Notes under the pieces: generated by a model
What the model was told of the DNA's origin: nothing
Database searches by the model: none
Seen by the model: the letters and a program-made list of their open reading frames with translations, nothing else
Made by a program: the position numbers and the translations under genes
Assembly (NCBI GenBank): GCA_043818555.1
Contig: JBDRFP010000019.1
Coordinates: forward strand, 1-59,862
Direction: 5' to 3'
DNA from: a bacterium
GTDB taxonomy: Bacteria > Patescibacteriota > Patescibacteriia > UBA9934
Length of the DNA: 59,862 nt
Shown here: piece after piece, positions 9,916 to 59,468 of the stretch
Numbering within the stretch: the stretch's first letter is position 1
How the letters are laid out: each line of letters begins with the position of its first letter

Positions 9916-9946
9916 ATAGGTCTTATAGGACCAATATGACCTATGG
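9916..9946. repeat. F-family word repeat (ataggtcc/ggaccaat)
   Basis: ataggtcttataggaccaatatgacctatgg is almost identical to 45769-45797. Related copies lie at 54491-54515 and 57959-57993. Confidence 0.7.
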
Positions 9947-9947
9947 G

Positions 9948-10036
9948 CAATAAATTCAGCTTTGCGTAAAAAATTCAGTTTGTCGTAATAAATCTCCGCT
10001 GGCCGGGCAATAAACCTCGTTTATCGCTAATAAACT
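9948..10036. repeat. C-family word array (aataaac units)
   Basis: Five spaced aataaa(c/t) words. The same word family forms inverted arrays at 15270-15432 and 30557-30695. Confidence 0.6.
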
Positions 10037-10711
10037 TTAGCTTCCCGATTCTTCCAGCATTTCCTCCAGTTGCCCCGACTCTTCCATGTCTGTCAGCACC
10101 TGATTGTAGATTGCCATAATTTCGTTGTCGCTGAGTTCATTTATTGTCTTTGCGTCAGCTCCGGAATCAATGAGCATTTGTCTTACTTCATCTGCTGACA
10201 CACCTTGCAGTAGACTCTGAATATCGTTGATTGTGTTGCTTGTATCTTCCACGGCGCCAAAAATGTTTTCCGTAACTGCCGTGCCCGGATTTATGCCGGT
10301 CGTGCCGTCTTCGTCATAGAGTGCCGACTCGCAGTCTGTACCGCGCGCGCAGACCGGGTCGTACCCTGCAGATAATTCGTCAGCGTCTGAGAAACCGTCG
10401 CCGTCAGTGTCTGCCAAATACGGACTGGTGCCGTAAGCGTATGTTTCGTCAAAGTCGCTAAGGCCGTCTTCGTCAGTGTCAGCGTTCTGCAGCGCTACCA
10501 TTTCCGCCATCTGATCTTCTTCACTAATAATATATTCAATTTCTGCCACTCCCAGATCAAACGGGTCGCTCAGATGACTGCCAACATAGAAAATTCCTAG
10601 CAGGAACGAAAGACCTCCCATCCCAATAACTAAAGCCAGCCCAGTTTTATGCTCATTGCTTAATGCGGGCTTGGTTTTGGTAATTAATACTCGTTGTTTC
10701 TCGCCTTTCAT
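10037..10711 (-). CDS. membrane-anchored protein with thrombospondin-type-3-like Ca-binding repeats
   Basis: ATG at 10711. One N-terminal TM segment (GLALVIGMGGLSFLLGIFYVG). DTDEDGLSDFDE and DTDGDGFSDADE match the DxDxDG repeat pattern. Lies immediately upstream of, and co-oriented with, the giant gene. Confidence 0.75.
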   Translation of the reverse strand: MKGEKQRVLITKTKPALSNEHKTGLALVIGMGGLSFLLGIFYVGSHLSDPFDLGVAEIEYIISEEDQMAEMVALQNADTDEDGLSDFDETYAYGTSPYLADTDGDGFSDADELSAGYDPVCARGTDCESALYDEDGTTGINPGTAVTENIFGAVEDTSNTINDIQSLLQGVSADEVRQMLIDSGADAKTINELSDNEIMAIYNQVLTDMEESGQLEEMLEESGS

Positions 10712-10799
10712 GGCAGTGGTATTATATCACAAATCGGGAGTAAGTAGATAGTAGATAGTAGTAAGTAGGCGACAAGCTTAAGTGCCCGAACTCTAACTT

Positions 10800-11582
10800 C
10801 TAAATTCTAGATTCTAAATTCTCCCACTCCCCAACAGACAACTCCTGAGCCCTCGCTTTTTCAGACAAGCCGATCTCGGAAAGGGCGTCTTTAACTTTCT
10901 CTGATGATGCAACGCGAGCTGCAGATAAATTCTTATGTAGCTGCTTCCTGCGTGATGAAAATCCGGCCTTGGCGATCTTGAGTAAAGCCTCGGCATGTTC
11001 GCGATCGACGCTGTCGATGATGTCGAGCTGCACAACGCTCGAGTCAACTTTTGGCTGCGGCCTGAATGATCCGGGCTTGACATTGAATAGTCGTTTCGGG
11101 TTTGTGTAAATTTGTATTGCAACCGATAGCAAACTCATCTCCCCTGCGCGCGCAAGCATTCTGTCGGCCACTTCTTTTTGTACCATTACTATCATGTGCG
11201 TTGGTCGAGCTGGTGACTTAAGCGCATTCATAATAATCGCATTCGCAGCATTGTACGGTAGATTTCCAACTAGCGCCCACGACGATCCTTTGGGAACTAG
11301 CTTACCATAATCAACTCGCGCAGCATCGGCCTGAATGATCTTGGTGTCTGCAAATCGAGCTTCCAAACCTGGGATCAGCTCCTTATCAGCCTCGACGAGT
11401 ACCAACTTTCTGTAGTTCTGTACCTTCTGTAGTTCTGTAACGATCTCTTCCGTCAGCGCCCCCTCCCCCGGCCCCACCTCAACAACAAAATCAACCGAAC
11501 TTAGATCGGCAGCTTTAACAATCTTCTTAACAACATTCTTATCTTTCAAAAAATGCTGCCCGTATGATTTTTTAGCTTGCAT
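10800..11582 (-). CDS. rsmA: 16S rRNA (adenine1518/1519-N6)-dimethyltransferase RsmA/KsgA
   Basis: YGQHFL motif and SAM-binding VVEVGPGEGALT. ATG at 11582 is preferred over the TTG at 11615, which overlaps the tsaC stop. Confidence 0.85.
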   Translation of the reverse strand: MQAKKSYGQHFLKDKNVVKKIVKAADLSSVDFVVEVGPGEGALTEEIVTELQKVQNYRKLVLVEADKELIPGLEARFADTKIIQADAARVDYGKLVPKGSSWALVGNLPYNAANAIIMNALKSPARPTHMIVMVQKEVADRMLARAGEMSLLSVAIQIYTNPKRLFNVKPGSFRPQPKVDSSVVQLDIIDSVDREHAEALLKIAKAGFSSRRKQLHKNLSAARVASSEKVKDALSEIGLSEKARAQELSVGEWENLESRI

Positions 11583-11607
11583 GTGAACTGTCAACTGTGA
11601 ACTCTCG

Positions 11608-12204
11608 TTACTCAATTAACACGCTCCCCTGCCTAATCACTTCCACCTCATCACCGACAATCTTAACTGTTGTCGACGGAGGTGACGCAGGCAAGTCGCC
11701 TCCATCAATAAACAAATCTGGCTTCTGGGGTCTATCTCTAAAATTTGCTTTTACATCGCGAACCGAGTAAACATCGCCGCTGCCCGACACATTCGCGCTT
11801 GTTGCCACTAAAGGTTTCCCGAGCTGATGAGTGAGGGTTGTTGCAAATGGGTGCGACGATACTCGAACAGACTGCGTGCCATCCTGACCGCAACGCTCAA
11901 CAATCGACGATCCTTCAGCTACCGGGGCGATTATGTTAAGCGCGCCAGGCCAAAATCGACTAGCAAGATCACGCGCAGCTTCGGACAAGTCGACAAAATC
12001 GCTCGCGCTATCAACCGACGGGATCAAAACCGGCAAACCCTTGCCACCTTCGCGGCCTTTAATTTCAAAAATACGGCTGACTGCCGATTCGTTTGTAGCA
12101 TCGCACCCAAGGCCGTAGGACGTTTCGGTTGGGAAAACCACCACACCTCCGCGCCGCAAAACCTTGAGCGCTTGTTCAATTTGTTCGCTTGTTATTTGAA
12201 GCAT
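11608..12204 (-). CDS. tsaC: L-threonylcarbamoyladenylate synthase, YrdC/TsaC type
   Basis: VVFPTETSYGLGCDA and IFEIKGR..GLPVLI are typical of the Sua5/YciO/YrdC domain. At 198 aa it is the single-domain form. Confidence 0.8.
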   Translation of the reverse strand: MLQITSEQIEQALKVLRRGGVVVFPTETSYGLGCDATNESAVSRIFEIKGREGGKGLPVLIPSVDSASDFVDLSEAARDLASRFWPGALNIIAPVAEGSSIVERCGQDGTQSVRVSSHPFATTLTHQLGKPLVATSANVSGSGDVYSVRDVKANFRDRPQKPDLFIDGGDLPASPPSTTVKIVGDEVEVIRQGSVLIE

Positions 12205-12337
12205 ACTTTCGCTGGAAATGAGCTGTTGAGAAAATAGAAAGTGGTAATGTAAAACAGAAAGAAGAAAATCGCTTTCGACAACTAATTTCTAATATCTTTT
12301 TTCTATTACGAATCTCCAATCTCCAAACAGCTACTTT

Positions 12338-13270: not shown

Positions 13271-13319
13271 ATAACGTTAGAATATCATTTTGTGTCGTCC
13301 GGCTCAACAGCCTTGCGAA

Positions 13320-13397
13320 GTGATTGAGTGATTTCTACGAGAGGCGAAAGTGATTGAGTGATTGAGTGAATCGAATCACTTAGTCACTTAATCACTG
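13320..13397. repeat. B-family word hairpin (gtgattgag / ctcaatcac)
   Basis: gtgattgagtgatt..gtgattgagtgattgagtgaatcg is followed by its inverted form cgaatcacttagtcacttaatcac. Family members lie at 26049-26086, 32446-32522, 52571-52614, 56829-56868 and 56936-56970. Confidence 0.75.
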
Positions 13398-13407
13398 GCG
13401 CGACAGG

Positions 13408-14532
13408 TTAATCACTCTTGTCTCCCGACTTTTCTGACGCCAATCTCCTTAGCTCCGCCTCAATAAACACGCCCAAATTGCCACCAAGCACCGCCTCAAC
13501 ATCCTGCACCTCAGCGTTCGTCCTATGATCTTTCACCATTTTATACGGATGCACTACATAGCTTCGAATTTGATTTCCCCACTCAGGCGACTTGTGTTTG
13601 CCCTTTAGCTCGTCGAGCTTTTCCGCGCGCTCCTCAAGCATCATTGTGTACAGGCGAGATTTCAAAACGCGCATGGCTGTTTCCTTATTCTGCTGTTGCG
13701 AGCGTTCGTTTTGGCAAGTCACAACCGTACTGGTTGGCGTGTGAGTTATTCGAACTGCCGAGTAAGTAGTGTTTACTCCCTGCCCTCCAGGACCGGACGA
13801 CATAAATGTGTCGATTCTTATGTCGTTTGGATCTAGCTCGATGTTTTGTTCATTCAGGTCGTCCAATTCCGGAATGACTTCTACAAGCGCAAAAGAAGTG
13901 TGCCGCATTTTCTCAGCATCGTAAGGCGAGATTCTGACAAGTCTATGAACGCCTGACTCAGTTTTTAAGTACCCGTACGCGCGGCGGCCTTTGACTGAAA
14001 AAGTTGCGCTCTTGATTCCGGCTTCCTCGCTCATGGACATGTCGAGCACGTCGACTTCCCAGTCCTGATTTTCCGCGTAACGCATCAGCATTCGCATGAG
14101 CATCTCTGCCCAGTCCATGGCGTCTGTTCCACCTGCGCCGGCGTGGATTGAGATTAGCGCGTTGCCGTTGTCAAACTCGCCAGAGAGTAGCATTGCGGTT
14201 TCAGCTTTGGCGAGCTTTGCTTCGATCTGACCGATCGTTGATTCAACATCGGCGATCGTAACCTGATCCCCCTCAGCCTCTGCGACTTCAAGAAGACTAA
14301 CAGCGTCGCCAACATCGTCGCGTAACTTGGTCCAAAGCGTTAGCTCATCTTTTAGCTGCGCAGCTTCTTGCGAAACCGCCTTAGCCTTGTTCTGGTCGCT
14401 CCAAAAATTCGGCCTGCCCATTTCTGTTTCCAAATCGTCGATCTTCTTAGCAACATCATCTAAACTCAAAACACCCCAAGCATCGTTGATCCTGGATTTG
14501 AGGTCTTCTAGTTGTTTTTGTAGAGCTGACAT
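13408..14532 (-). CDS. prfB: peptide chain release factor 2
   Basis: GGQ motif (SSGPGGQGVNTT) and the RF2-type block HRLVRISPYD..RHTSF. ATG at 14532 (MSALQKQLEDL). The reading frame is continuous, so no +1 frameshift is needed. Confidence 0.9.
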   Translation of the reverse strand: MSALQKQLEDLKSRINDAWGVLSLDDVAKKIDDLETEMGRPNFWSDQNKAKAVSQEAAQLKDELTLWTKLRDDVGDAVSLLEVAEAEGDQVTIADVESTIGQIEAKLAKAETAMLLSGEFDNGNALISIHAGAGGTDAMDWAEMLMRMLMRYAENQDWEVDVLDMSMSEEAGIKSATFSVKGRRAYGYLKTESGVHRLVRISPYDAEKMRHTSFALVEVIPELDDLNEQNIELDPNDIRIDTFMSSGPGGQGVNTTYSAVRITHTPTSTVVTCQNERSQQQNKETAMRVLKSRLYTMMLEERAEKLDELKGKHKSPEWGNQIRSYVVHPYKMVKDHRTNAEVQDVEAVLGGNLGVFIEAELRRLASEKSGDKSD

Positions 14533-14724: not shown

Positions 14725-14760
14725 CAGTGACTTAAGGTCCGTACGGACCTTAAGTCACTG
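14725..14760. repeat. perfect 36-bp palindrome
   Basis: cagtgacttaaggtccgt / acggaccttaagtcactg is an 18+18 perfect inverted repeat. It lies between prfB and the DUF4870-like gene (both on the minus strand). Confidence 0.9.
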
Positions 14761-14848
14761 GGAATCAAAAACCATTTAAAACACGGATTTTAATAATTCG
14801 GTTTTGAATGTCCGAAACTGTAAGCTGGCAACCAATATACGGATATCT

Positions 14849-14916
14849 GCTAGGCTAGAAGGGCTAGAGAACCAAAAAGAGCTAGCTCAACTAGCTCTTC
14901 TAGCCCTACTAGCTCC
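14849..14916. repeat. D-family word hairpin (gctaga/gggcta)
   Basis: gctaggctagaagggctagag .. ctcttctagccctactagctcc. The related array at 18689-18735 and the same words inside the coding region near 19800-19850 belong to this family. Confidence 0.65.
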
Positions 14917-14925
14917 TTCGCAATA

Positions 14926-15255: not shown

Positions 15256-15269
15256 AGGAAATAATTACG

Positions 15270-15432
15270 AGGTTTATTTTCAAAAAGCTAGGTTTATTAT
15301 CGAGGGGCTGAAGTTTATTGGCTGGCGACTTGGTTTATTATTCGTGTCGCGCGCTTAGAACAATAAACATCCGTTCTCTGACAAGAAACACTTGCTCCAG
15401 GCAATAAACTATGCAGGCTGACAATAAACTTT
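15270..15432. repeat. C-family inverted word array (ggtttatt x5 then aataaac x4)
   Basis: Spaced ggtttatt words are followed by spaced inverted aataaac words. This gives a long imperfect palindrome downstream of groEL. Confidence 0.7.
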
Positions 15433-15463
15433 GCTTACCGAAGATAATACCACAAAACGAGGC

Positions 15464-15488
15464 GCTTGCCCCGTTTTGTTTAGATCCG
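15464..15488 (-). terminator. groEL terminator
   Basis: aaaacgaggcgcttgccccgttttg is a hairpin with flanking A and T runs, about 40 nt beyond the groEL stop. Confidence 0.6.
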
Positions 15489-17639: not shown

Positions 17640-17715
17640 GGGAGGTTAAAGAGAGGTTATTGCGGAAAGCGAGGAGGTTAGGCCTGAAGCTGAAGAGGTT
17701 AAGAGAAGTTAAGGG
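17640..17715. repeat. G-family word array (gaggtta)
   Basis: ggaggttaaagagaggttat..gaggaggttagg..gaagaggttaagagaagttaagg. An inverted short copy lies at 39561-39588. The same word is used in the coding tail of nusA. Confidence 0.7.
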
Positions 17716-18669: not shown

Positions 18670-18688
18670 GAAAGTGGTAATCAAAAAA

Positions 18689-18735
18689 GCTAGAGGGGCT
18701 AATGGGGCTAATAGAGCTAGCTCCACTAGCTCTCT
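18689..18735. repeat. D-family word array
   Basis: gctagaggggctaatggggctaatagagctagctccactagctc. It starts at the stop codon of the O-antigen-ligase-like gene. Confidence 0.65.
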
Positions 18736-20929: not shown

Positions 20930-20937
20930 AACAATTT

Positions 20938-21021
20938 TGTTACAGACCTACGAACTATACGAACCTACAGACCGACAAGCGCAATCAGTTCGTAAGTCTG
21001 TACAGTTTGTAGGTCTGTAAT
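20938..21021. repeat. E-family word hairpin (tacagacctac / gtaggtctgta)
   Basis: ttacagacctacgaactatacgaacctacagacc .. ttcgtaagtctgtacagtttgtaggtctgtaa. A related array lies at 47155-47200. Confidence 0.7.
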
Positions 21022-21028
21022 GGCATCG

Positions 21029-22045: not shown

Positions 22046-22332
22046 GTAGTAGTATTGTAAACCATTCGAGCGTGTAGGCAAAGGAGCCTGCATCTCCTCA
22101 CCGACCTTCCGAGCACGCCTGGCTTTGGTAGAGCAGGAGTCAGGAATTGCATTTTGAACCCATTCGTATCCATTTAAAAACGAATGGAGTCCAAAATGCC
22201 CTGATGTATGCTCTACCTAATGCCGGGCGAGCGCAGGCAGTCGGAAGCAGTTTCTTTTCCCCATTTCTTTGCTGCTTCAAAGAAATGGGGGTGGGGGTCT
22301 GGGGTGGCGCCCCACCCCAGGGGCTTTTCGAA

Positions 22333-22377: not shown

Positions 22378-22468
22378 TCGAGATGGCGAGGGGTCATGCG
22401 ATCACAGAAACGGACATAAAAAACAGAGCCTTTCGACTCTGCTTGTTGCTACTGGATACTGACTACTT

Positions 22469-23214: not shown

Positions 23215-24639
23215 TTATTTGTCTTCGCCTTGATCATCTTCGACTTTTGAGTCATCGTCATTGTCGCTGTCATCGTCCTTGACCTCCTCGCCTTCTGCAA
23301 TAACCTCTTCGCTTGTCGATATAACCTCCGCGTCCTCAGACTTAACCTCTTCGTCTGACATGATAACCTCTTCGCTTTCTGGCTTAACCTCCTCGTCCTT
23401 AACTCCCGCCTCACCATCTCCCTTCACGCTCACCTTCAACCCAACCAACTTGGCTGCAAGGCGAACATTCTGACCTCCCCGGCCAATAGCAAGCGAAAGC
23501 TGGTCTTCCGCAACTTCTGCGGTTGCCATTCCGGATGCATCATCAACAACTACGCTCTTTACTTTCGCAGGCGCAAGAGCTGCGGCAATAAATTCCTTAG
23601 GATCATCGCTCCATTCAATAACATCAATTTTTTCTCCCCCCAGTTCGTGGATGATTGTCTGAATGCGCACGCCGCGCTGGCCAATACAGGCGCCGATCGG
23701 ATCGATTGACTCATCGGTTGAAGCCACGGCAACTTTGGATCGCGACCCTGCTTCGCGGGCAATGCCCTTAATCTCCACAATGCCGTCGGCTACTTCGGGA
23801 ATTTCAACCTCGAAAAGAACCTGCACCAATTCACCGCTTGTTCTTGAAAGTGAAATCTGCGGTCCTCGTGTGCCAAGCGCAACTTCGCGCACAAACACTT
23901 TAATACGGTCGCCAGCGTTGTAGCGCTCGCCAGGAATTTGGTCATCCGGAGCAAGTATGCCAACGGTGCGGCCAATGTCGACAAGGACTACCCGTCCCTC
24001 ACGGCGCTGGACTGTGCCAATCAACACCTCGCCCTCCTGTTCCTTGTACTGACTAAAAATGATCTCGCGCTCGGCTTCGCGGAGCTTTTGTGTAATCACC
24101 TGTTTTGCGGTCATTGCGGCCATTCGCCCGAACTCGCCCGGAAGCGGCAGGTCTGTGCGAATAACATCGCCAATCTCCGCTCCGCTTTTTAGCACCTTGG
24201 CGTCAGAAATCATGATGTCGGTCTTTGGATTGAACTTTGGACCTTCATCTTCTAACTCTCCGTCCAGCTTGGTTTCAGAGGCTTCATTGGTTTCAGCTGT
24301 TCCCCTTTCACCTTTTTTTACTTTTTTCACCTCTCCAAAATCGAACCCCTTCTCCCTCGCCGACTTTTGAGCTTCAATCTCAGCCGCCTCCTCTGCCTGC
24401 ATCTCTCTCATCTTTTCAATCTCCTCTTCAGGAAGATCTTCAACAACGATTTTGACGTCTTCGAGTTTTACTTCGCCTGTTGATGGGTCGAACTCAGCTT
24501 CAATATTCTGAAGCTTGTTGCCATAGTCTTTTCTGTAAGCCGCGGCGAGCGCTGACTCGATTGTTTCGAGCACAGCTTCGTAGCTAAGACCTTTCTCTTC
24601 GCAAATTTGTTTTATTGCTGCTTCGATGTCAGATGCCAT
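23215..24639 (-). CDS. nusA: transcription termination/antitermination factor NusA with acidic low-complexity C-terminal tail
   Basis: S1 and KH regions are present (GEVLIGTVQRREGRVVLVDIG, DPIGACIGQRGVRIQ, LAIGRGGQNVRLA). ATG at 24639 (MASDIEAAIKQ). The last ~70 aa are EEV-rich repeats. Confidence 0.9.
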   Translation of the reverse strand: MASDIEAAIKQICEEKGLSYEAVLETIESALAAAYRKDYGNKLQNIEAEFDPSTGEVKLEDVKIVVEDLPEEEIEKMREMQAEEAAEIEAQKSAREKGFDFGEVKKVKKGERGTAETNEASETKLDGELEDEGPKFNPKTDIMISDAKVLKSGAEIGDVIRTDLPLPGEFGRMAAMTAKQVITQKLREAEREIIFSQYKEQEGEVLIGTVQRREGRVVLVDIGRTVGILAPDDQIPGERYNAGDRIKVFVREVALGTRGPQISLSRTSGELVQVLFEVEIPEVADGIVEIKGIAREAGSRSKVAVASTDESIDPIGACIGQRGVRIQTIIHELGGEKIDVIEWSDDPKEFIAAALAPAKVKSVVVDDASGMATAEVAEDQLSLAIGRGGQNVRLAAKLVGLKVSVKGDGEAGVKDEEVKPESEEVIMSDEEVKSEDAEVISTSEEVIAEGEEVKDDDSDNDDDSKVEDDQGEDK

Positions 24640-24765
24640 AAAATTATAAGTTAGAATTTGAAATTTAGAAGTTAGAATTGGTCTACTTAAGCAAGTAACT
24701 CGGCAAAAGCCGAGTCCAATAGTCAAAAAGATGATAACATGGCTTTTTGATTTTGGCAAGCGGGG

Positions 24766-25567: not shown

Positions 25568-25690
25568 ATTTCGTTCCCCACTTTTCAAAGGGGGATTAAA
25601 GGGGTGTTACTTGCTTTTAAGCGCTCCGCGATCGCATATCGGTAAACGCTAACCTCCCCTAACCCCTCCTTGAAAAGGAGGGGAGAACAT
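25568..25690. repeat. K-family elements, inverted pair (copies 2 and 3)
   Basis: 25568-25610 reads atttcgttccccacttttcaaagggggattaaaggggtgttac. 25650-25690 is the same element inverted (taacctcccctaacccctccttgaaaaggaggggagaac). Confidence 0.7.
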
Positions 25691-25694: not shown

Positions 25695-26048
25695 TCAACC
25701 TCCAACACCCTCCAAGTGGACAACCTCAAACGGATCATACACAATCGCGACAACATCAACTCGATATGGCACCCGCTTAAGATCGTTGACCGATAAATAC
25801 TGCTCGCCAACAGTTATTATCTTCTTGAGTTTCGCCGTGGTCACCGACTCTTCCGGGTATCCATAGTCAACACCGTGTCGAGCTTTCACCTCAACAAAAA
25901 CGATCTCATTGCCATCACGCGCAATAAGATCGACTTCTCCAATATTTGTTTTAAACTGCCGCTCCAGGATTTTAAATCCTTTTTCTTCGAGCATCTTGGC
26001 CGCTAGATCCTCTGCCTTGTCTCCAAATTTGCGTCGATCGTCGATCAT
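25695..26048 (-). CDS. yraN: YraN-family (UPF0102) endonuclease-like protein
   Basis: GEVDLIARDGNEIVFVEVKAR is the family signature. ATG at 26048; an alternative GTG at 26054 lies inside a B-family word. Confidence 0.8.
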   Translation of the reverse strand: MIDDRRKFGDKAEDLAAKMLEEKGFKILERQFKTNIGEVDLIARDGNEIVFVEVKARHGVDYGYPEESVTTAKLKKIITVGEQYLSVNDLKRVPYRVDVVAIVYDPFEVVHLEGVGG

Positions 26049-26082
26049 AATCACTCAATCGCTTAGCCATTCAATCACTCGA

Positions 26083-26493
26083 TCACTTTTTATTCTTCCG
26101 AGGCAAATACTTATTATACTCCGACCTCTTTGACTCCTCTTCTTTAATCTGCGGTACGATCACGCGCGCATAACGAATTATCATTACCAGCCAGTAGATT
26201 ACCCCGAACAACCAAACCAGGAACCAGAACCGGGCGCCGAGCAAATAGATCCCCTCAAATGTAAAGAAGAACCATGCCATGCCGAGTATCCCCATTGTTA
26301 TCAACATGCGACCGGCACTCTGGAAAGTCTTTTTTAAATGGCGGTCATCTTTTCTGTGGCGAGCGACAATGCGTACGACTGCGCCAATTATGACCATGAG
26401 GCCGAAGACCAGAAAAAATATCCGCTCGCTGGTAGCGGTAAGCGCTGTTGGCTCCATTGCAAACCAGAAGCCGAGTGTGAATAGATTGGACAT
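26083..26493 (-). CDS. hypothetical membrane protein
   Basis: 136 aa with 4 predicted TM helices and a basic C-terminus. No family recognised. Confidence 0.55.
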   Translation of the reverse strand: MSNLFTLGFWFAMEPTALTATSERIFFLVFGLMVIIGAVVRIVARHRKDDRHLKKTFQSAGRMLITMGILGMAWFFFTFEGIYLLGARFWFLVWLFGVIYWLVMIIRYARVIVPQIKEEESKRSEYNKYLPRKNKK

Positions 26494-27397: not shown

Positions 27398-27539
27398 TAA
27401 TGACCAAGGCCCGAATAACCAACCCCCAATAAATTCCCAATGTCCAATCCTCCAATTTTCGATCACACGCCAGTGCCCATCAATTGGTCATTAGGTATTG
27501 GATATTCATTGGTCATTGGGTTCTTGTGAATTGGTCATT
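27398..27539. repeat. A-family CCAAT/ATTGG palindromic element, copy A1
   Basis: The left arm is rich in ccaat words. The right arm is caattggtcattaggtattggatattcattggtcattgggttcttgtgaattggtcatt, which is conserved in A2-A5. Confidence 0.8.
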
Positions 27540-27625
27540 TTTACTTTCTCCCATTATGCCACGAATCGTCAGTTGGTAAAAGTCGGACATCATTAAAACC
27601 CCCAACGCGAGGTCGGAGGTTTTAA

Positions 27626-27702: not shown

Positions 27703-27822
27703 GCGTTTATCGCTAATCGACATTTCATCTTGCGGCAACACAATAACATATCTCCTCCGAAATGTCAATATCGCCCTCTATTCGTTGGTAGACGCTTTCA
27801 CCTTGAGGAGCAATGTCATATA

Positions 27823-28470
27823 ATGGATGATATGAGTAAGCCAAAGGGTAAAGTGAAAATTGAGTGGTCCCCTAATTTTGCGTATGCTATTGGATTATTG
27901 GTAACTGACGGTAGTCTGTCGTGCGATAGGCGTCATATTGACTTTACATCTAAGGACATCGAACTCATTAATCACATACAAAAAGCGCTCTGTATCCAAA
28001 ACAAGGTTGGCACAAAGGGTAGTGGACCTGATAAAACAAATAGATACTTCCGAGTCCAAATTGGCGACGTGTTGTTCTATCGATTTCTTGAAAAGACAGG
28101 TCTGACGCCAAACAAATCAAAAACCATCTCCGCGATTCAAGTTCCAAATGAATATTTTTTCGACTTCTTGCGTGGGTGCCTTGATGGCGATGGATGTTTC
28201 TACTCTTATTGGGATATGCGCTGGAGGTCAAGCTTTATGTTCTACACGGTATTTTGCTCTGCAAGTAAAGCGCACATAAACTGGCTGCAACAGGAAATCG
28301 AAACGCGCCTTAGAATCAAGGGCCATGTCTCCAAGGCTAAATCGCAATCAGTGTACCAGCTTAAGTACGCAAAGGCTGAGACCTTGACACTTTTACCTGT
28401 TTTGTATTATTCTTCTGACGTTCTCTGCTTAACGCGCAAACGCGAAAAGATAGAAAACGTGTTAGCTTAA
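27823..28470 (+). CDS. free-standing LAGLIDADG homing endonuclease
   Basis: Two LAGLIDADG motifs (YAIGLLVTDGSL and FLRGCLDGDGCF), giving a double-motif monomeric enzyme. ATG at 27823 is preferred. Lies between tRNA-Val and tRNA-Leu. Confidence 0.85.
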   Translation: MDDMSKPKGKVKIEWSPNFAYAIGLLVTDGSLSCDRRHIDFTSKDIELINHIQKALCIQNKVGTKGSGPDKTNRYFRVQIGDVLFYRFLEKTGLTPNKSKTISAIQVPNEYFFDFLRGCLDGDGCFYSYWDMRWRSSFMFYTVFCSASKAHINWLQQEIETRLRIKGHVSKAKSQSVYQLKYAKAETLTLLPVLYYSSDVLCLTRKREKIENVLA

Positions 28471-28563: not shown

Positions 28564-28680
28564 TTCGAAAATCTCAGGCATAGCCCTCGATTTTCTCATG
28601 GCAAGCCATAAGGCCTGAGATTTTCGAATGTCCTGAGGATTCCGAAGTCTACGACTGAGAAATCCGAGGGACAGAAAGTC
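28564..28680. repeat. L-family trailer with nested inverted repeats (gaaaatctcagg words)
   Basis: A 16-bp perfect inverted repeat (28564-28579 / 28613-28628) interleaves with a second one (28584-28597 / 28657-28670). The first ~47 nt recur after tRNA-Leu(CAG) at 54678-54725. Confidence 0.75.
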
Positions 28681-29157: not shown

Positions 29158-29173
29158 ACGCATACCGTGCCCA

Positions 29174-40611: not shown

Positions 40612-40665
40612 TGGCACCTCCTTTTTTTTGTTTTGAATTTTTGACTCCGCTAAATTGTCGACGAT

Positions 40666-40705: not shown

Positions 40706-40730
40706 GAATTGTCGACTTCTCGGCAGAGAC

Positions 40731-40748
40731 CTGGAGCGGCCGCTCCAG
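40731..40748. repeat. perfect 18-bp palindrome ctggagcggccgctccag
   Basis: Read directly from the sequence. Lies in the I5 gene 1 / gene 2 intergenic region. Confidence 0.9.
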
Positions 40749-40880
40749 ATACTCAGCGGTTCTGGGAAGAACTTATTGAAGTGTCGATTCTGCAATCAAC
40801 CTCTCAATGAGTTCCCCGTACCAGACTTCCAGCTTGCGCTAGAAATGGGTACGGGGACGCTTTAACTTGAAGGAGCGGGG

Positions 40881-41900
40881 CTAGACGAACGCGCCGTCGA
40901 CGGACTGCCACCAGGACCGGGGCCGGCGGCCGCCTTCGTGGCGAGCCCACTGAGGACCGCGCCAGTTGCGCTCGACGGGCTTGCGAGACCCGTCGTCGCT
41001 GCAGTACTCCAGCTCGCGCTGGCGCAACTGCTCGGAAACGATCTCGGCGTCGAGCATGCGCTCGATTGCCTCGATCGTGTCCTCCACGATGACCTCGGGA
41101 TTGTGCCTCAGCCGACCGAAGTCGACGCCGAAGTCGTAGTCCCAGAGCTCGTCGGGCTCGTAGTCGTAGTCCTCGTCCAGGTCGTAGTCGTCCCACTCGA
41201 GGGCTCTGTCGAGGACATAGTCCTCGTCGTCGTCCAGGGCGTTGAGCGCTTCACAGCAGGAGTCGCGTCGCGACTCCTGCTGCAAAAGCGTCTCTTCGGC
41301 CTCGTAGTCCCATTCCTCGGCTTCGGCTTGCGCCTTGGCCTCGGCCTCCATGTCCTCGAAGACGGCCCAGGGGTCGGTGTCCTCGATCATGTCGGCGTTG
41401 GGCTCGACGCGGATACGAGCGCCCTTGTGGCGGGCCCACTGGGGACCGCGCCAGTGTCGCTCGGCCGGAGGGTCATCGCACTTGCCCTCCCACTGACTGT
41501 TCCGCTCGTCGAGCTTGCGCTCGGCTCGAGCAGAGAGTCGACGCTCGATGTCGTCGATCTCGGCCTCGCAGTCGTCGTCTTCGCTCTCCTCGTACATGTC
41601 GGCCATGTCGTTGTAGCGGTCGAGGCCGTGGTCTTCGTACTCATCGCTGTCGTCCCAGACTTCGATCTCCTCGTCGCTCGGCGCCACCATGTCCTGGTAG
41701 TGATCATTGAGCATGTGGAAACCGACTTCATCGATCGGGATCCAGTTGCGCTCCGGGTCGTCGACGCGCATGTCCTCGGACGGACCCAGGAGGTTTTCCC
41801 AGGCCCAGTCTTCGAGGTCAAGTGCGTTGGCATCGCCAACGGGCAGCGCCCCGGACTCGGACGAATGGAACTCGCGGCCTTCTGCTCCAGAATTGAGCAT
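40881..41900 (-). CDS. highly acidic repeat protein, 339 aa (cassette I5, gene 1)
   Basis: ATG at 41900 lies 7 nt after AAGGAG. GC3 bias is strong. Asp/Glu/Trp-rich, with a duplicated ER(H/N)WRGPQWARH(K/E)G motif. The ORF-track extension to 42083 is a translated A-repeat. Confidence 0.75.
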   Translation of the reverse strand: MLNSGAEGREFHSSESGALPVGDANALDLEDWAWENLLGPSEDMRVDDPERNWIPIDEVGFHMLNDHYQDMVAPSDEEIEVWDDSDEYEDHGLDRYNDMADMYEESEDDDCEAEIDDIERRLSARAERKLDERNSQWEGKCDDPPAERHWRGPQWARHKGARIRVEPNADMIEDTDPWAVFEDMEAEAKAQAEAEEWDYEAEETLLQQESRRDSCCEALNALDDDEDYVLDRALEWDDYDLDEDYDYEPDELWDYDFGVDFGRLRHNPEVIVEDTIEAIERMLDAEIVSEQLRQRELEYCSDDGSRKPVERNWRGPQWARHEGGRRPRSWWQSVDGAFV

Positions 41901-42044
41901 GTCCTGTCTCCTTGGTTGTTTTTTTATTGAAGTTAAGAAAACTATTTTGACTCTTTTACAAGCCATGTTTGTGGTCTTTCTAAAGCCGCAATCATGGATT
42001 GTAAATGCTATCTGTTTGGGAACCGACCGATACAATGTAGCTAA

Positions 42045-42153
42045 TGTCCAATCCCCAATTATCAATTCCCAATGAATTCCCAATTCCCAATCTCCAATTG
42101 GTCATTGTGCATTGGATATTCATTGGTTATTGGGTGCTTGTGAATTGATCATT
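42045..42153. repeat. A-family element, copy A4
   Basis: tgtccaatccccaattatcaattcccaatgaattcccaattcccaatctccaattggtcattgtgcattggatattcattggttattgggtgcttgtgaattgatcatt. Confidence 0.8.
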
Positions 42154-42420
42154 TAATGAGCCAACAAAATGCCACACTTTGGCTCTTCTGATGGAGAAAG
42201 CGGTTTATGCCTAATCACAGAAAGCCCAAAATGTGGCTTTTTCTTACAGCCCGATGAAATCAGGCTAACTCTCTCCCCAGAAAGTATTGAATTGTAAGCT
42301 TCAATTTAACACTAATACTATACCACATTTTGACGATTTTGTCAAGACCTAAACCTACTGAATTCCGCCAAACTTAGCAAAATTAACTTTACTAATCCTA
42401 GCCACTTTTCAGCCCAACGA

Positions 42421-42490
42421 GACAACCCTAAAGGTTCAGAAACCTTGAGGGTTGCGCGTCCAGAGTTCAGAAATCTTGAGGGTTGTCTGG
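42421..42490. repeat. J-family word hairpins (aaccttgagggttg)
   Basis: gacaaccctaaaggttcagaaaccttgagggttg..cagagttcagaaatcttgagggttgtc. A related perfect hairpin lies at 44017-44048. Confidence 0.7.
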
Positions 42491-42552: not shown

Positions 42553-42629
42553 GGGTGTGTAGCTCAGTTGGTCAGAGCGCGGAGCTTATACCTCCGTGGT
42601 CGATGGTTCGAGTCCATCCACACCCACCA
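42553..42629 (+). tRNA. tRNA-Ile (anticodon TAT)
   Basis: Acceptor gggtgtg/cacaccc, anticodon stem cggag/ctccg, loop cTTATac, T-loop ttcgagt, encoded CCA. Confidence 0.8.
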
Positions 42630-42810: not shown

Positions 42811-43116
42811 ATGCCTAGTGGTACAACTTCGAAAAGGCTACATTACACCTATGTACTTCGGAGTAACAAAGACGGTAAAAACTACGTAGGCTACTCTCCT
42901 TTATTGCTGAGCGCCTTTTACAGCATAGCTCAGGAAAAGCTGTATCGACGCAACACAGAAGGCCGTTGAAGTTGATTTATCTAGAGGTATGTTTATCCAA
43001 GGTTGACGCCCTGCGTCGTGAGAAGTATTTAAAAACCACCGACGGGAGAAAATTCTTGTCCAAACGTTTAAAAGATTACTACGGTCCACACACTAATTCG
43101 AAGTTGTCCCACTAGG
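42811..43116 (+). pseudogene. GIY-YIG nuclease gene, frameshifted
   Basis: Relative to 52042-52353 it has 19 substitutions and one 1-nt deletion (ctctgcc to ctctcc), by hand alignment. The frame runs into TGA after about 53 codons. Confidence 0.75.
42814..43116 (+). mobile_element. TIR-bounded GIY-YIG element, copy 1 (decayed)
   Basis: 20-bp terminal inverted repeats cctagtggtacaacttcgaa / ttcgaagttgtcccactagg (19/20). TATG is present on both flanks (42810-42813 and 43117-43120). Confidence 0.75.
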
Positions 43117-43117
43117 T

Positions 43118-43980: not shown

Positions 43981-44016
43981 GGTACCTCCTTACGAGAACC
44001 TTAGCAGAAAATAAAT

Positions 44017-44048
44017 CAACCTTCAAGGTTTCTGAACCTTGAAGGTTG
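44017..44048. repeat. J-family perfect hairpin
   Basis: caaccttcaaggtt-tctg-aaccttgaaggttg has a 14-bp perfect stem. It lies between the two genes of cassette I6. Confidence 0.85.
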
Positions 44049-44059
44049 CGATCGGCGCC

Positions 44060-55010: not shown

Positions 55011-56822
55011 ATGATAGAAAAAAAGACTGCCCCGCGCAGTGGAGCAAGACGCTCCCGAAAGCGCAGAGCCCGACCGGGACAAAACAAAAAAAACCAACAG
55101 CCAAAAACCCCTTTTAAGAAAACGGCTGTCAAAACATTTCACGCGCCTACCGGAGACAAGGTGCGCGTAATGGCTCTTGGCGGGCTTGAAGAAGTCGGAC
55201 GCAACTGTACTCTGATTGAGTACAAAAACGACATTATCCTTATTGACATGGGGCTGCAGTTCCCAGAAGAGGATATGCCCGGCGTTGACTACATTATCCC
55301 AAACATGAGCTACCTCAAGGGCAAGGAAAAAAATGTTCGCGGCGTGATTATTACTCACGGACACCTAGACCACATTGGCGCAATTCCTCACACAGTGCCA
55401 AGCATTGGCAACCCGCCGGTTTATGCGCTCCCGATTTCGGCAGGAATCATTAAAAGGCGTCAGACCGACTTCCAGAGCTCAAAGGTAAATGTTAAAAATA
55501 TCGAAGCTACCTCTGTATTGAAGCTCGGAGCTTTTAAGGTTCACTTCTTCCACATTAATCACAACATACCTGACTCTGTCGGAATTATTGTGGAAACCCC
55601 GGCAGGAATTATTGTGCACACCGGTGACTGGAAATTCGACTACCACCCGGTAGGAACCCAGCCGGCTGACTTTCACAAGATTGCATCGCTCGGGGCTGCG
55701 GGCGTGCTGCTTCTAATGGGAGACTCTACTAACGCTCCGTCGCCCGGACATCAGACTTCGGAAAAAGTGATTGGCGAAGAGCTCAGGGGCATACTTGAAA
55801 AGGCCAAGGGGCGCGTGATAATCGGAACCTTTTCTTCACTGCTCTCGCGCGTTAAACAAATCATTGAAATCTCCGAACAGCTTGGCCGCAAGGTGGCGCT
55901 CGATGGATACTCAATGAAAACAAACGTTGAAATTGCGCGAGAACTTGGATACATCCATGTGAGCTCAAAAACACTGATCCCAATCGATAGTATCCGCAAC
56001 CACCCCGACGACAAAGTAACAATAATCTGTACCGGAGCTCAGGGCGAAAGGCGCGCTGCGCTGACGCGGATTGCAAACGACGAGCACCGCGACATTAAAA
56101 TCAAACCCGGAGACACTGTAATCTTCTCAAGCTCAATTGTGCCTGGAAACGAGCGGTCGGTTCAGCGCCTTAAGGATACGTTCTACAGAAAGAAAGCGAT
56201 TGTGCTGCATAAAGACATTCTTGACGTTCACGCCGGCGGCCATGCAAAAAAAGAAGACATCAAGCTAATGCTCTCGCTCATGAAGCCAAAGTACTACATG
56301 CCGATTGAGGGCAATCACTTCCTACTTTGTGAAAACGCAGAGGTCGCCTATGAAATGGGCTGGAAGCAAAATGAGGTCTTTGTTGCAGACAACGGCCAGG
56401 TCGTGGAGCTTTGGAAGGACAGCAAAGGCGGAAGCGCGCGACTAACCAACGAGAAGGTGCCGACAGATTACATATTTGTGGACGGCCTTGGAGTTGGAGA
56501 TGTGTCGCAGGTGGTTCTGCGCGACCGCAAGGTGCTTGCCGAAGACGGGATGGTGATGGTGATTGTGCAGGTCAGGCGTCAAAGTGGCAAGCTGGTCGGC
56601 ATGCCCGACATTGTAAGCCGTGGGTTCGTGCATATGAAGGAGAACAAAAAACTCATTAACGAAACCCGAAGCCTTGTACAAAAACTGATGGTTGACAACG
56701 ACCCCAAATCGCAAGCAGACCCGTCAAACATCCGCAACAATATCCGCGATGAAGTTGGAAAATTCTTGTTCAAAAAAACCGAACGCAGGCCAATGATACT
56801 GCCGGTTGTGATTGAAGTTTAA
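55011..56822 (+). CDS. rnj: ribonuclease J
   Basis: Metallo-beta-lactamase HGHLDHIGA, a beta-CASP region, and the RNase J C-terminal domain. A basic ~40-aa N-terminal extension is present. Confidence 0.9.
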   Translation: MIEKKTAPRSGARRSRKRRARPGQNKKNQQPKTPFKKTAVKTFHAPTGDKVRVMALGGLEEVGRNCTLIEYKNDIILIDMGLQFPEEDMPGVDYIIPNMSYLKGKEKNVRGVIITHGHLDHIGAIPHTVPSIGNPPVYALPISAGIIKRRQTDFQSSKVNVKNIEATSVLKLGAFKVHFFHINHNIPDSVGIIVETPAGIIVHTGDWKFDYHPVGTQPADFHKIASLGAAGVLLLMGDSTNAPSPGHQTSEKVIGEELRGILEKAKGRVIIGTFSSLLSRVKQIIEISEQLGRKVALDGYSMKTNVEIARELGYIHVSSKTLIPIDSIRNHPDDKVTIICTGAQGERRAALTRIANDEHRDIKIKPGDTVIFSSSIVPGNERSVQRLKDTFYRKKAIVLHKDILDVHAGGHAKKEDIKLMLSLMKPKYYMPIEGNHFLLCENAEVAYEMGWKQNEVFVADNGQVVELWKDSKGGSARLTNEKVPTDYIFVDGLGVGDVSQVVLRDRKVLAEDGMVMVIVQVRRQSGKLVGMPDIVSRGFVHMKENKKLINETRSLVQKLMVDNDPKSQADPSNIRNNIRDEVGKFLFKKTERRPMILPVVIEV

Positions 56823-56870
56823 GCCTGAAGTGATTGAGTTATTGAGTGGTTGAGTAATTAAGTAAAGCGA

Positions 56871-56897
56871 AAGACGAGTCGGAAGGCTCGTTTTTTG
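56871..56897 (+). terminator. rnj terminator
   Basis: aagacgag-tcggaagg-ctcgtttttt hairpin plus T-run, flanked by B-family word arrays at 56829-56868 and 56936-56970. Confidence 0.65.
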
Positions 56898-56977
56898 CTT
56901 ATAAACTCTTATTGTTGCTATAATATCGCTATGGCAACTCAGTCACTAAATCACTCAGTCACTAAATCACTTCTGAT

Positions 56978-58110: not shown

Positions 58111-58743
58111 GTGGAAACCTCCCGCCAACCTCCCGCCTCCTCATTCGATGGAGGCTCGACCGCTTCTCCTGGCCACCCGGCCACAGCCCCGCGTTCATTG
58201 CGCCATACGCAAACGCCCCGAGACCGCCGCGATGTGCTCTCCAAGGCCATCCGCGACAAGATCGGCGACGGCGCGAAGATCGACTGCAAGACCGGGGCCA
58301 TGCTCGCGATCACGGTCAAGATGGTCGAGCTGTTCGGCTACGACGGGAAAAGCATGGATGCGCTCGAAACCTTCGCCGATCGCGCAATGGGTCACGAGTT
58401 CAGGAACCTGGACGAATTCGCCAGTGCTCTCCCCGACCTCGGCCCGGCGCAGGCCCTGGTGCTCAAGAACCGACTTCATGTCCTGCCCGCAACCGAACCT
58501 GGCAGCGTGCAGGCCGCAATGGCAAACTTCGTCGAGAGGTTCGCCGTGCGGTACCCTGACGCCATCGCCCTTTGGGAGCGCGCACTCGACCGCATCGCAA
58601 GCGGCGAGATCGCCAACCACGCCGCGCTCGCGAGGGCGCTGCCCGTGTACTTCCAGAACACGTGCCTGGCAGATGGAGAGCTCACTGCCGCAAGCAGCCG
58701 CGCCTTTCACGGCAACGGCCGCAAGCTCCAGTCTCTGATCTAG
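58111..58743 (+). CDS. hypothetical protein, 210 aa (GC-rich cassette I7)
   Basis: GTG at 58111 follows AAGGTG. Among three overlapping long ORFs, this frame has the strongest GC3 bias. A terminator follows. No family recognised, and the start is uncertain. Confidence 0.6.
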   Translation: METSRQPPASSFDGGSTASPGHPATAPRSLRHTQTPRDRRDVLSKAIRDKIGDGAKIDCKTGAMLAITVKMVELFGYDGKSMDALETFADRAMGHEFRNLDEFASALPDLGPAQALVLKNRLHVLPATEPGSVQAAMANFVERFAVRYPDAIALWERALDRIASGEIANHAALARALPVYFQNTCLADGELTAASSRAFHGNGRKLQSLI

Positions 58744-58761
58744 CCGACCCGCTCGGCACCC

Positions 58762-58790
58762 GTGCCCCCAGACGCAAGTCCGGGGGCATT
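58762..58790 (+). terminator. terminator of cassette I7
   Basis: gcccccagac-GCAA-gtccgggggc hairpin followed by atttatt. Confidence 0.7.
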
Positions 58791-58795
58791 TATTA

Positions 58796-58824
58796 TTGAC
58801 AAAATCGACCAAATATGCTATTAT
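58796..58824 (+). promoter_or_regulatory. rnpB promoter
   Basis: TTGACA (58796-58801), 17-nt spacer, TATTAT (58819-58824). This places the TSS about 7 nt downstream, at the 5' strand of P1. Confidence 0.6.
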
Positions 58825-59014
58825 TCACGAGTTCAGGAAACAAGACAATCGCTTCAAGCTTGGCTTGATGAGGAAAGTCCGAACACCGCATGCGTGGTAA
58901 CGCGCATGTAAAAAAGAGCGTTGCTAACGGCAACCGGGCGAGTGTAATTTGAGGAATTAGATCTATTCCTTGATAGCGTGAAGCCTAGGGAAAGTGCCAC
59001 AGAGACAATACTAA

Positions 59015-59165
59015 CCAGTGCTTCGCACTGGAATGATCAATGACCGAATATTCAATCTCCAATGAATACCCAATGTTTAATAACCAATGAAAATTGGGAA
59101 TTGAGAATTGGAAATTCATAGAGAATTGAAACTTGGAAATTGGACATTCCGATGCGGAGCATCGG
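59015..59165 (+). repeat. A-family-derived insert 1 inside rnpB (P12 position)
   Basis: 151 nt, bounded by the hairpins ccagtgc-ttc-gcactgg and ccgatgc-gga-gcatcgg. The core consists of ccaat / attgg words. Confidence 0.85.
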
Positions 59166-59317
59166 TGAAACGTGAAAAGTTCGATGGTGTCGCTTGCGGC
59201 TACATCGATCGCCCCGTGGTGACGCGGTGGCGTGGTAAACCCACTCTGGTGAAAGAGCAAATTTGGTAGCTCGATTGAGGCGTCTGGCAACAGGCGTCCT
59301 AGACAAATGATTGTCAG

Positions 59318-59468
59318 CCAGTGCTTCGCACTGGAATGCTCAATGACTAAACATCCAATCTCCAATGAATCCCCAATGTCCAATAACCAATTAAGATTGG
59401 GAATTGAGAATTGGAAATTCATTGGGAATTGGAACTTGGAAATTGGACATTCCGATGCGGAGCATCGG
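59318..59468 (+). repeat. A-family-derived insert 2 inside rnpB (between the P2 and P4 3' strands)
   Basis: 151 nt, with 13 substitutions and no indels relative to insert 1 (hand alignment). It shares ccaatgaatccccaatg and attcattgggaattgg with intergenic copy A2. Confidence 0.85.

Follow-up and report, generated by a model that had tools for sequence, protein, structure and literature searches.

Slightly more than half of the larger gene gaps in a 59,862-base contig from an Uhrbacteria genome (Candidate Phyla Radiation, CPR; Patescibacteria) hold significant arrays of short words, repeated in tandem and frequently repeated again in the opposite orientation. The contig, JBDRFP010000019.1, was analysed over its whole length and is referred to below as the window; its word families are designated by letters. 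The reading that we favour, with modest confidence, is that these are lineage-specific, slippage-built and self-folding repeats resembling MITEs (miniature inverted-repeat transposable elements) and cyanobacterial STRRs (short tandemly repeated repetitive sequences), and that at least one family, C, has been kept by selection on its core word.

The host is a groundwater bacterium with a small genome, and its nearest proteins belong to metagenome-assembled genomes of Candidatus Uhrbacteria and Patescibacteria. The closest relative, GCA_030688135.1 (ArgRS 74%, GroEL 82% and epimerase 69% identical), was represented by loci L010, L012 and L138, and other relatives by L011, L014 and L016. Synteny with several relatives extends over more than 20 kb, and the block compared runs methyltransferase ... 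NusA-YidC-...-GroES-GroEL-...-PrfA-epimerase-Sua5-RsmA-...-giant open reading frame (ORF). An identical sequence was recovered at approximately 2x depth, with zero differences, from four groundwater and biofilm metagenome runs; no match to the window was found in the RNA runs searched. A search for exact matches to the epimerase protein of the window was negative. Protein domains were sought with Pfam on the window ORFs, RNAs with cmscan against Rfam and repeats with Tandem Repeats Finder (TRF), and gap families were detected by all-against-all blastn of the gaps together with a de novo 7-mer census.

Enrichment of local word repeats in the gene gaps

Exact 7-mers recurring within 80 nt were counted and compared with dinucleotide-preserving shuffles. 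Intergenic direct recurrences amounted to 432 against 69 ± 15 in the shuffles and inverted ones to 314 against 69 ± 16. An earlier inspection of the sequence (the original prediction) had described a vocabulary of stuttered intergenic words, and these are indeed far commoner than composition predicts. The intergenic density exceeds that of coding DNA approximately 2.3-fold for direct and 4.7-fold for inverted recurrences, and with curated gene starts it reaches 66/kb direct and 50/kb inverted, where ~8/kb is expected. A 50-kb control from Escherichia coli gave 3 direct and 38 inverted recurrences per kb. The direct stutter is thus ~20-fold the E. coli level while the inverted-repeat density is similar, so the oddity of the window lies in the direct stutter, and in inverted repeats that are themselves composed of stutters.

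Among the 39 gaps of at least 50 nt, direct repeats were significant (p ≤ 0.01) in 16, inverted repeats in 15 and either of them in 22. The word arrays and inverted arrays were seen where they had been described, in the printed sequence, in TRF and in word maps; the statement that most gene gaps hold them stands only for a slight majority. TRF returned 74 rows, chiefly of period 7–11 and chiefly within gaps, including adjacent tandem units that are 100% identical. Recurrence of the families across loci was strongly supported for A and supported for B, C, K, L, J, F and D, whereas the cross-locus matches of E, G and M within the window are degenerate. Counted as exact words, D, E, F, G, J and M did not exceed chance, so local alignment was required, and it rescued D, F and J.

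Unit grammar and folding

All families share one grammar, in which an invariant core of 5–7 nt is joined to a variable linker at a period of 7/11, 8 or 20–21 nt, and a typical array has 4–5 units running one way followed by 3–5 reversed. These periods (7, 8 and 20/21 nt) break the reading frame, and a coding or peptide-repeat origin was rejected. In predicted single-strand folds, core pairs with core, which leaves the linkers in symmetric internal loops of 2x2 (A) or ~12x13 (C). Many arrays fold at z = −4 to −7.6 relative to shuffles, with two of the three C ladders at only z = −2.5. The potential for long imperfect hairpins, another feature noticed earlier, is significant in many arrays (z −3 to −7.6) but not in all, and several arrays are direct only: a single arm is seen in G, in C at 9945, in B at 52568 and 26045 and in the array at 10742–10822. 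When sense and antisense folding were compared for 22 hairpins, the sense strand was stabler in 14 and the antisense in 8 (mean −1.7 kcal/mol, not significant), and strand asymmetry was discarded as a sign of RNA-level selection. As far as such predictions go, a role at the RNA level is possible.

Conserved cores of the C arrays

The C family is built on a sharp AATAAAC 7-mer repeated every 19–21 nt, and 14 of the 24 AATAAAC/GTTTATT 7-mers lie in three arrays, all unstranded. The array at 15262–15440 consists of four GTTTATT words followed by four AATAAAC words at 20–21 nt and lies in the 5' leader that precedes the DUF4870 gene, with a conserved extended −10 element (TGGTATTAT in the window, TGGTATAAT in the closest relative) upstream of it. 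The one at 30548–30722 holds 5 + 3–4 words at 19–21 nt and sits between the stop of ArgRS and the promoter of bactofilin. The third, at 9945–10036, is a single arm of 4–5 words at ~20 nt upstream of the 3024-aa ORF. Pairwise identity among the C units (n = 27) is 0.79–1.00 at the seven core positions and 0.24–0.41, that is random, at the flanking ones.

The closest relative has both mirrored arrays at its orthologous sites, in the ArgRS-to-bactofilin gap and in the DUF4870 leader, with unchanged phasing and a roughly equal unit count. In the relative, one of them carries a 128-nt MITE within a spacer, and a 40-nt unit duplication was also found. For one orthologous pair, 55 of 71 core positions are identical against 38 of 88 spacer positions (Fisher p = 1e-5); for the second the figures are 48 of 64 and 51 of 116, a contrast overstated by a unit-sized gap in the alignment. 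The spacers within an array are mutually unrelated, so homogenisation of whole units fails to explain the identical cores, and the word appears to be constrained. A uniform 7-mer in every rung exceeds the needs of a hairpin, and the array at 9945 has one arm.

The spacing of two helical turns, also encountered in the G array, is of the kind that a lattice of proteins bound to one DNA face would need. We tentatively suggest, as a rather doubtful extension, that the C cores form a cis-acting code, a lattice for polymerising sequence-specific proteins or for a mobilising enzyme, and G and B may be alike. No DNA-binding protein for the C words was found by Pfam among the window ORFs. A metagenome scan for AATAAAC-N12-14-AATAAAC-N12-14-AATAAAC gave no further recognisable CPR arrays among the matches listed, which were mainly satellites and AT-rich DNA of unrelated organisms.

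The A family and its insertion into rnpB

The A family has the unit nnCCAAT, often (C/T)CCCAAT, and comprises seven homologous copies that align over ~110 nt, all in the same contig orientation. Since the transcription flanking them varies, their orientation relative to it is not fixed. The word CCAATNNCCAAT occurs 18 times in the window against 0.14 expected, and 63 CCAAT cores were counted in 8 segments, spaced by 7 nt (18 times) or 11 nt (12 times). TRF reported period-7 arrays at 30015–30048, 42048–42099, 51755–51814 and 59396–59451. In the predicted hairpin the CCAAT cores are paired and the unpaired linker dinucleotides take 11 different values. The ends of the element, AATGACCAAT...ATTGGTCATT, are mutually inverted.

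Five copies are intergenic, each unstranded. The palindromic element at 27398–27545, recognised by alignment, blastn and matches to CCAATNNCCAAT, has nnCCAAT arms and a 29-nt insert in its loop. That at 30018–30130 fills the gap between the bactofilin and DAGK genes, and its terminal AATGACCAATGA contributes the TGA stop codon of bactofilin; the protein ends in ...ADNDQ* in the window versus ...ADSE* in the relative. The copy at 33768–33880 lies between ValRS and TyrRS, with the TGA of ValRS inside the terminal AATGACC, so that ValRS likewise ends within the element. The remaining two are at 42044–42155, found by alignment and blastn, and at 51752–51995, with an insert of ~120 nt at its centre and 47 nt upstream of a GIY-YIG ORF. 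No shared direct repeat, and thus no target-site duplication, was detected in the flanks of these five copies. No copy of the family was found in the 137 other loci examined, relatives included.

The two copies suspected in rnpB proved real. They are modules of 141 nt, 91% identical to one another, on the plus strand of the type-A RNase P RNA gene. One (59020–59160) occupies the P12 loop in the cmscan alignment, where the insert measures ~130 nt and contains a small hairpin, a CCAAT/ATTGG hairpin and another small hairpin. The other (59323–59463) was placed by cmscan and blastn between the 3' strand of P2 and that of P1, at the position of P19. The RNA is 670 nt long against 367 positions of the Rfam consensus, with an otherwise complete catalytic core (126 bits).

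The earlier comparison of A with MITEs and repetitive extragenic palindromic (REP) elements is upheld in so far as the seven homologous ~110-nt copies constitute a small dispersed palindrome. REPs and bacterial interspersed mosaic elements (BIMEs) are GC-rich palindromes of 20–40 nt that have a GTAG/CGTC head and an accompanying gene for a REP-associated Y1 transposase (RAYT). Membership in them was rejected for the arrays, whose arms are 40–60 nt, AT-rich to neutral, and begin with AATGACC, AGTGATT and similar; no Y1 transposase was found by Pfam in the window.

Two copies of the small GIY-YIG nuclease ORF (42811–43117 and 52042–52353) share 94% identity over a stretch that coincides exactly with the ORF, from its ATG to its end, and the former is frameshifted by a 1-nt deletion. 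Both are downstream of A elements, at 47 nt (52042 copy) and ~650 nt (42811 copy). A link between element and ORF was rejected, as the shared homology starts at the ATG and excludes the element; the association is merely noted. The ORFs look like a free-standing mobile nuclease gene.

Gain and loss of arrays among relatives

Intergenic DNA makes up 12% of the window, with a direct stutter of 66/kb, and 16–18% of the closest relative, with 44–48/kb; in both, long gaps are filled with repeats. L016 has 6% intergenic DNA, 16/kb of direct stutter and gaps of 3–90 nt. Filled and empty sites can be recognised. At the junction of the LPG-synthase gene with a 303-aa gene, L012, L014 and L016 show an overlap or at most 11 nt, and the window has 99 nt that are almost entirely an E palindrome. 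Reverse cases exist in the closest relative, with 476 nt between Sua5 and RsmA versus an overlap in the window, and 762 nt between PrfA and the epimerase. The dominant palindromes differ from genome to genome. Some words are found in both the window and the closest relative at different loci, namely E GTAGGTCTGTAAC, G TAACCYC, AACGTT, the D-like GCTAG and an element starting with CCCCTGGGGTGG. The last is a GC-rich double hairpin (CCCCTGGGGTGG..CCACCCCAGACCCCCA..CATTTCTTTG..CAAAGAAATGGGG), situated at ~22230–22310 in the window and at ~2280–2350 of L138, and is probably a further dispersed family.

Comparing orthologous gaps for growth or shrinkage of the words had been advised, and unit gain and loss between species was indeed seen. 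Identical adjacent units and the 40-nt duplication in the C array of the relative indicate that arrays still resize by slippage. Hairpins or stutters of differing sequence occur at the same untranslated region (UTR) positions in several relatives. The hairpins of the window are lacking in the corresponding gaps of the more distant L011, L014 and L016, so they cannot be essential to those operons. The closest relative also has a MITE of its own, the 128-nt TTGAATTACGAAACTCG...CGAGTTTCGTAATTCAA, in several gaps (L010 1–95 and 3395–3490; ends of L012 and L138), which seems to split that assembly into contigs.

Other word families

All arrays in this section are unstranded. The B family has the unit AGTGAtTn, with AGTGAtT kept and the final position free, and GTGATTGAG occurs 7 times against 0.6 expected. 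Five direct and then four inverted 8-mers lie at 13315–13420, between the prfA stop and the epimerase promoter, with non-complementary spacers of 12–14 nt and fold z of −7.6/−5.2. The same architecture fills the TyrRS-to-ArgRS gap up to the ATG of ArgRS (32448–32545), and a B-like array is present in the orthologous gap of L011. At 56825–56975 a U-tract terminator and an extended −10 promoter are enclosed by the two arms (56829–56863 and 56937–56971). Direct words only were found at 52568–52615, by sequence reading and word counts, and at 26045–26095, in a 28-nt gap upstream of the UPF0102 gene.

The D family was identified by word map and visual comparison at 14845–14920, where GCTAG words run direct and then inverted, and at 18685–18730, which shares AGAGCTAGCTCnACTAGCTCT with position 14879. 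The two loci have a stretch of ~22 nt in common (by eye), and related words are seen at the orthologous site in L012. The E palindrome at 20936–21024 (TACAGACC... / ...GGTCTGTA) folds at z −6 to −7, and at 47060–47196 direct arrays, AGAAGAC-type on the left and the E-like TTTGTAGGTTTGTAAC on the right, flank a bidirectional terminator. In the G family, five TAACCTC words (sense) spaced by 10/21/21/11 nt lie at 17640–17715, just upstream of the groES −35 element, and G-like words follow the CCA-adding enzyme gene at 39562–39592. The C-terminal coding region of NusA (23282–23395) also contains a 21/42-nt tandem repeat carrying TAACCTC at 21-nt spacing.

TRF further reported local heptamer arrays at 10742–10822 (AGTAGAT x4 and TCTAAAT x4), and the word TTCTAA recurs as a stutter in the nusA 5' leader (24640–24679), positions 10792 and 24662 being joined by local alignment. 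The J hairpins at 42418–42490 are homologous to one at 44012–44050, and recurrence of the F family is backed by local alignment, as is that of K. The K motif (CCCCCC-TTTTCAA-GGGGGG-ATTAAA-GGGGGG), at 724–763, 25570–25609 and, inverted, 25648–25690, has a single C-run able to pair with either G-run and lies in convergent gaps beside terminators. A K-like motif is also present in the gap downstream of GroEL in L014, and no Rfam family matched it. The L hairpin at 28564–28632 is the trailer of a tRNA-Leu gene with a homologous trailer at 54678–54720, and the family is nothing more than the duplicated trailer of the two tRNA-Leu genes. Local amplification is visible in tandem units that are 100% identical, and arrays such as G are products of local slippage. 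The view that all families other than A are merely locally amplified words is not supported for B, D, E, J, K and L, which are dispersed, or for C, which is orthologously conserved.

Similarity to known repeat systems

The unit of STRR1 was reportedly given by Mazel in 1990 as CCCCA(A/G)T, and neither STRRs nor the arrays of the window have an accepted function. As with STRRs, the window repeats include tandem degenerate heptamers confined to non-coding DNA, and they are shared by the same gene pairs of related species with varying length and sequence. The intergenic heptamers of Nostoc are CCCCAAT/GGGGATT and GGGGA(T/C)T (PMC4692102), and the A unit nnCCAAT is often the very same CCCCAAT. STRRs have been described inside the rnpB gene of heterocystous cyanobacteria (Vioque, 1997, as summarised in PMC2858038), and A repeats sit in the RNase P RNA at P12, which they lengthen. 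The analogy with cyanobacterial STRRs drawn in the original prediction is thus strengthened in both unit and rnpB location. The differences are that the host is a CPR bacterium and not a cyanobacterium, that the heptamers form balanced inverted arms of a dispersed ~110-nt element, that several unrelated word families coexist and that rnpB holds two modules.

In Xanthomonas, the heptameric intergenic simple sequence repeat (SSR) GGGAATC is G-rich with quadruplex potential (PMC4692102). Like the window arrays, such heptamers are over-represented between genes and include some inverted pairs, and their position is conserved between close species while their length varies, for which polymerase slippage was proposed (PMC4692102). 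That system has a single word, whereas the window has many AT-rich to neutral words, with periods of up to 21 nt and dispersed palindromes. Bacterial MITEs and small palindromes such as Nezha, Correia, RUP, ERIC and BOX have been reviewed (PMC3184786). The window elements resemble them in their size (~100–150 nt), mutually inverted ends, stable predicted fold and many intergenic copies, as well as in filled and empty sites among relatives and in copies within transcripts and at gene ends. They differ in that target-site duplications are missing and that no cognate insertion sequence (IS) was found by Pfam in the 60-kb window; moreover, their arms are stuttered throughout instead of bearing unique terminal inverted repeats, single arms occur and growth takes place in situ.

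The operator/centromere arrays of omega/ParB of pSM19035, a ribbon-helix-helix (RHH) protein, are likewise contiguous 7-bp words in mixed orientation with at least 4 units per array (PMC9499535), a number reached by the 4–5 units per arm of A and B. The window differs in having dozens of arrays and several words, in the chromosome and partly inside an RNA gene, and no RHH protein was found in it. The likeness is one of architecture only, a precedent and not evidence. Lastly, short, selfish palindromes of green-algal organelle genomes (Volvox, Dunaliella) also spread through the intergenic DNA of one otherwise compact lineage while close relatives are compact, although in an organellar system and with other repeat sequences (PMC2670323; PMC3017802).

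The window repeats are consequently not plain STRRs, given their host, nor plain MITEs, given the missing target-site duplication and the lack of a cognate IS in the window. Most of the finding is the CPR counterpart of a known, unexplained repeat class. We know of no accepted explanation for STRR-type repeats.

Proposed origin and alternative explanations

The proposal starts from what has been shown above: words are enriched, units obey a common grammar, arrays are dispersed, fill sites that are empty elsewhere and bear signs of slippage, and cores are better conserved than linkers. Replication slippage on a core would create tandem arrays and resize them in place. Mirror-image arrays of ~90–120 nt (A, B, D, E, J, K) would then be copied to new sites as non-autonomous elements of MITE/STRR type, as suggested by homologous copies at unrelated loci, by sites filled in one genome and empty in another, and by elements inserted over stop codons and into loops of rnpB. 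The arms would fold on each other in DNA or RNA and rejoin the flanks of the insertion, such as a stop codon and the start codon after it or both sides of an rnpB loop, so that little harm would come to an operon or to the RNase P RNA, which could account for their tolerance. Selection on the word would keep the cores identical across units, copies and species while the linkers drift to random; core conservation at two orthologous C loci, the 20–21-nt phasing and the lone arm point to selection on the word itself. A sequence-specific reader would be required, most simply a DNA-binding protein lining up on phased or contiguous sites, or else a mobilising enzyme. Both the reader, in its existence and its nature, and the reason for tolerance are what we infer from this pattern.

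Several points weigh against this proposal. The alignments behind the core-versus-spacer comparison of C were anchored on the cores, and the comparison itself covers ~25 kb of the closest relative. Pfam revealed neither a transposase or RAYT nor a DNA-binding protein in the window, and the A copies bear no target-site duplication. Survivorship could mimic selection in the contiguous A and B arrays, as an array whose cores are intact goes on slipping and remains recognisable. Besides, the consistent sites of the arrays (after stops, in leaders, upstream of promoters), together with the two conserved C arrays, also fit a primary function in place of a parasitic origin.

Such a function might lie in RNA, with the arrays acting as UTR or intercistronic hairpins that shield mRNA ends from exonucleases (the window encodes RNase J at 55011–56822), as RNase III sites, or in translational coupling where Shine-Dalgarno sites are few. 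Many arrays do fold far above shuffles (z −4 to −7.6), several co-directional gaps are filled from stop codon to start codon, the A modules within rnpB are certainly transcribed, the C array at 30548 is 14 kcal/mol stabler in the sense strand with 12 G-U pairs, and the same UTR positions hold differing hairpins or stutters in several relatives. We nevertheless regard this as unlikely, because strand preference is not consistent (14 vs 8 of 22, not significant), linkers and spacers stay unpaired though their pairing would be an easy gain in stability, and an identical word in all rungs is not demanded by structure alone. One-armed arrays exist (C at 9945, G, and B at both 52568 and 26045), the arms at 56825–56975 belong to different transcripts with a terminator and a promoter between them, L011, L014 and L016 lack the hairpins in the corresponding gaps, and the RNA runs searched yielded no sequence of the window. 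Intrinsic termination, one of the roles considered in the original prediction, would agree with hairpins of which many are downstream of genes, but we hold it to be very improbable and have abandoned it: the arrays are AT-rich, interrupted by periodic internal loops and devoid of a U-tract, some are in 5' leaders or divergent gaps, and canonical terminators with a GC stem and a U-tract exist separately (~56868–56895, 47110–47145, 15452–15479, 22421–22444 and 29170–29195), beside, between or even inside arrays.

It is also conceivable, albeit quite improbable in our judgement, that all families are protein-binding lattices on double-stranded DNA, with cooperative operator or architectural roles, and that palindromy is a by-product of symmetric complexes. 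The sharp 5–7-bp cores within free linkers, the words in both orientations as double-stranded sites would show, the lone arms, the helical phasing of C (19–21 bp) and of G (10/21/21/11 bp, just upstream of the groES −35) and the two orthologous C sites would all suit such lattices, and heptads arranged as ->-><-->-><-<- are bound by omega/ParB of pSM19035 when at least four are contiguous (PMC9499535). There are, however, no fewer than five to ten words, for each of which a regulator-poor genome would have to supply a protein, and Pfam revealed no candidate among the window ORFs. In addition, the A copies in rnpB and over stop codons resemble insertion rather than regulation, the dominant family differs in each related genome, and periods of 7–8 bp lack helical phasing. 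For C, short conserved repeats alternating with variable spacers of 12–14 nt recall guide-RNA arrays of the TIGR or CRISPR type, and TIGR systems do occur in CPR bacteria (PMC12045711). In a TIGR array the unit is 36 nt long and combines two spacers with paired edge and loop repeats that bear UG/CCA boxes, and a gene for a Nop-domain Tas protein is adjacent (PMC12045711); the C unit measures 19–21 nt and contains one 7-nt repeat. Orientation flips in the middle of the C array, there are only 4–9 units, no Tas or Cas protein was found in the window by Pfam, and in two species the arrays occupy orthologous sites flanked by housekeeping genes, with spacers conserved in part. This reading was rejected on unit size, orientation flip and the lack of effector genes in the window, and appears extremely improbable.

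Other features of the window

Besides the RNase P RNA, the window has five tRNAs. One of them, at 42553–42629, is a tRNA-Ile with the anticodon TAT (UAU), an uncommon bacterial route to reading AUA. A free-standing LAGLIDADG-type ORF lies between tRNA-Val and tRNA-Leu (27730–28470), and a similar one adjoins a tRNA in the closest relative (L010, 6274–6912). The 3024-aa ORF (812–9886) has no Pfam domain, and its position is kept in relatives (ORFs of 2930–2990 aa). Start codons are often devoid of a recognisable Shine-Dalgarno sequence (e.g., 30011, 30489, 32444, 24636, 13270, 17169), extended −10 promoters (TGnTATAAT-like) are common to the window and the closest relative, and the epimerase gene seems leaderless, with a −10 element 8 nt before its ATG. 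A hairpin 5' of prfA (14725–14760 in the window, ~905–940 in L138) keeps the centre GTCCGTACGGAC unchanged in both genomes, whereas its outer stem varies from one to the other without loss of pairing; it is a candidate conserved structured element or palindromic binding site.

The block at 39597–42083 has 59% GC against ~48% elsewhere, and its ORFs are without Pfam matches. Two consecutive ORFs are each trailed by homologous, near-perfect palindromes of 90–115 nt (39860–39975 and 40657–40720; z of the DNA fold −7.3 and −5.7). The arrangement recalls cassettes and is unrelated to the word arrays; its palindromes differ from those of the arrays, and no link between the two emerged.

Implications

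Genomes of CPR bacteria are regarded as streamlined and poor in repeats. The ~12% intergenic DNA of the window, much of it short-word repeats, and its 670-nt RNase P RNA contrast with that picture. In practice, the arrays lengthen false ORF starts, provide stop codons and muddle assembly graphs. The presence of repeats in one lineage versus gaps of 3–90 nt in a syntenic relative offers a natural before-and-after comparison of their origin and cost. A CCCCAAT-type heptamer and an rnpB site in an unrelated phylum point to a mechanistic cause in common with cyanobacterial STRRs. It is the C arrays, conserved and phased, that most deserve experiment, as a candidate new protein-DNA recognition system. 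If this holds true, the C lattice would give a way into the general role of STRR-type repeats, and a regulator-poor CPR bacterium would possess a repeat-based control or insulation of its housekeeping operons.

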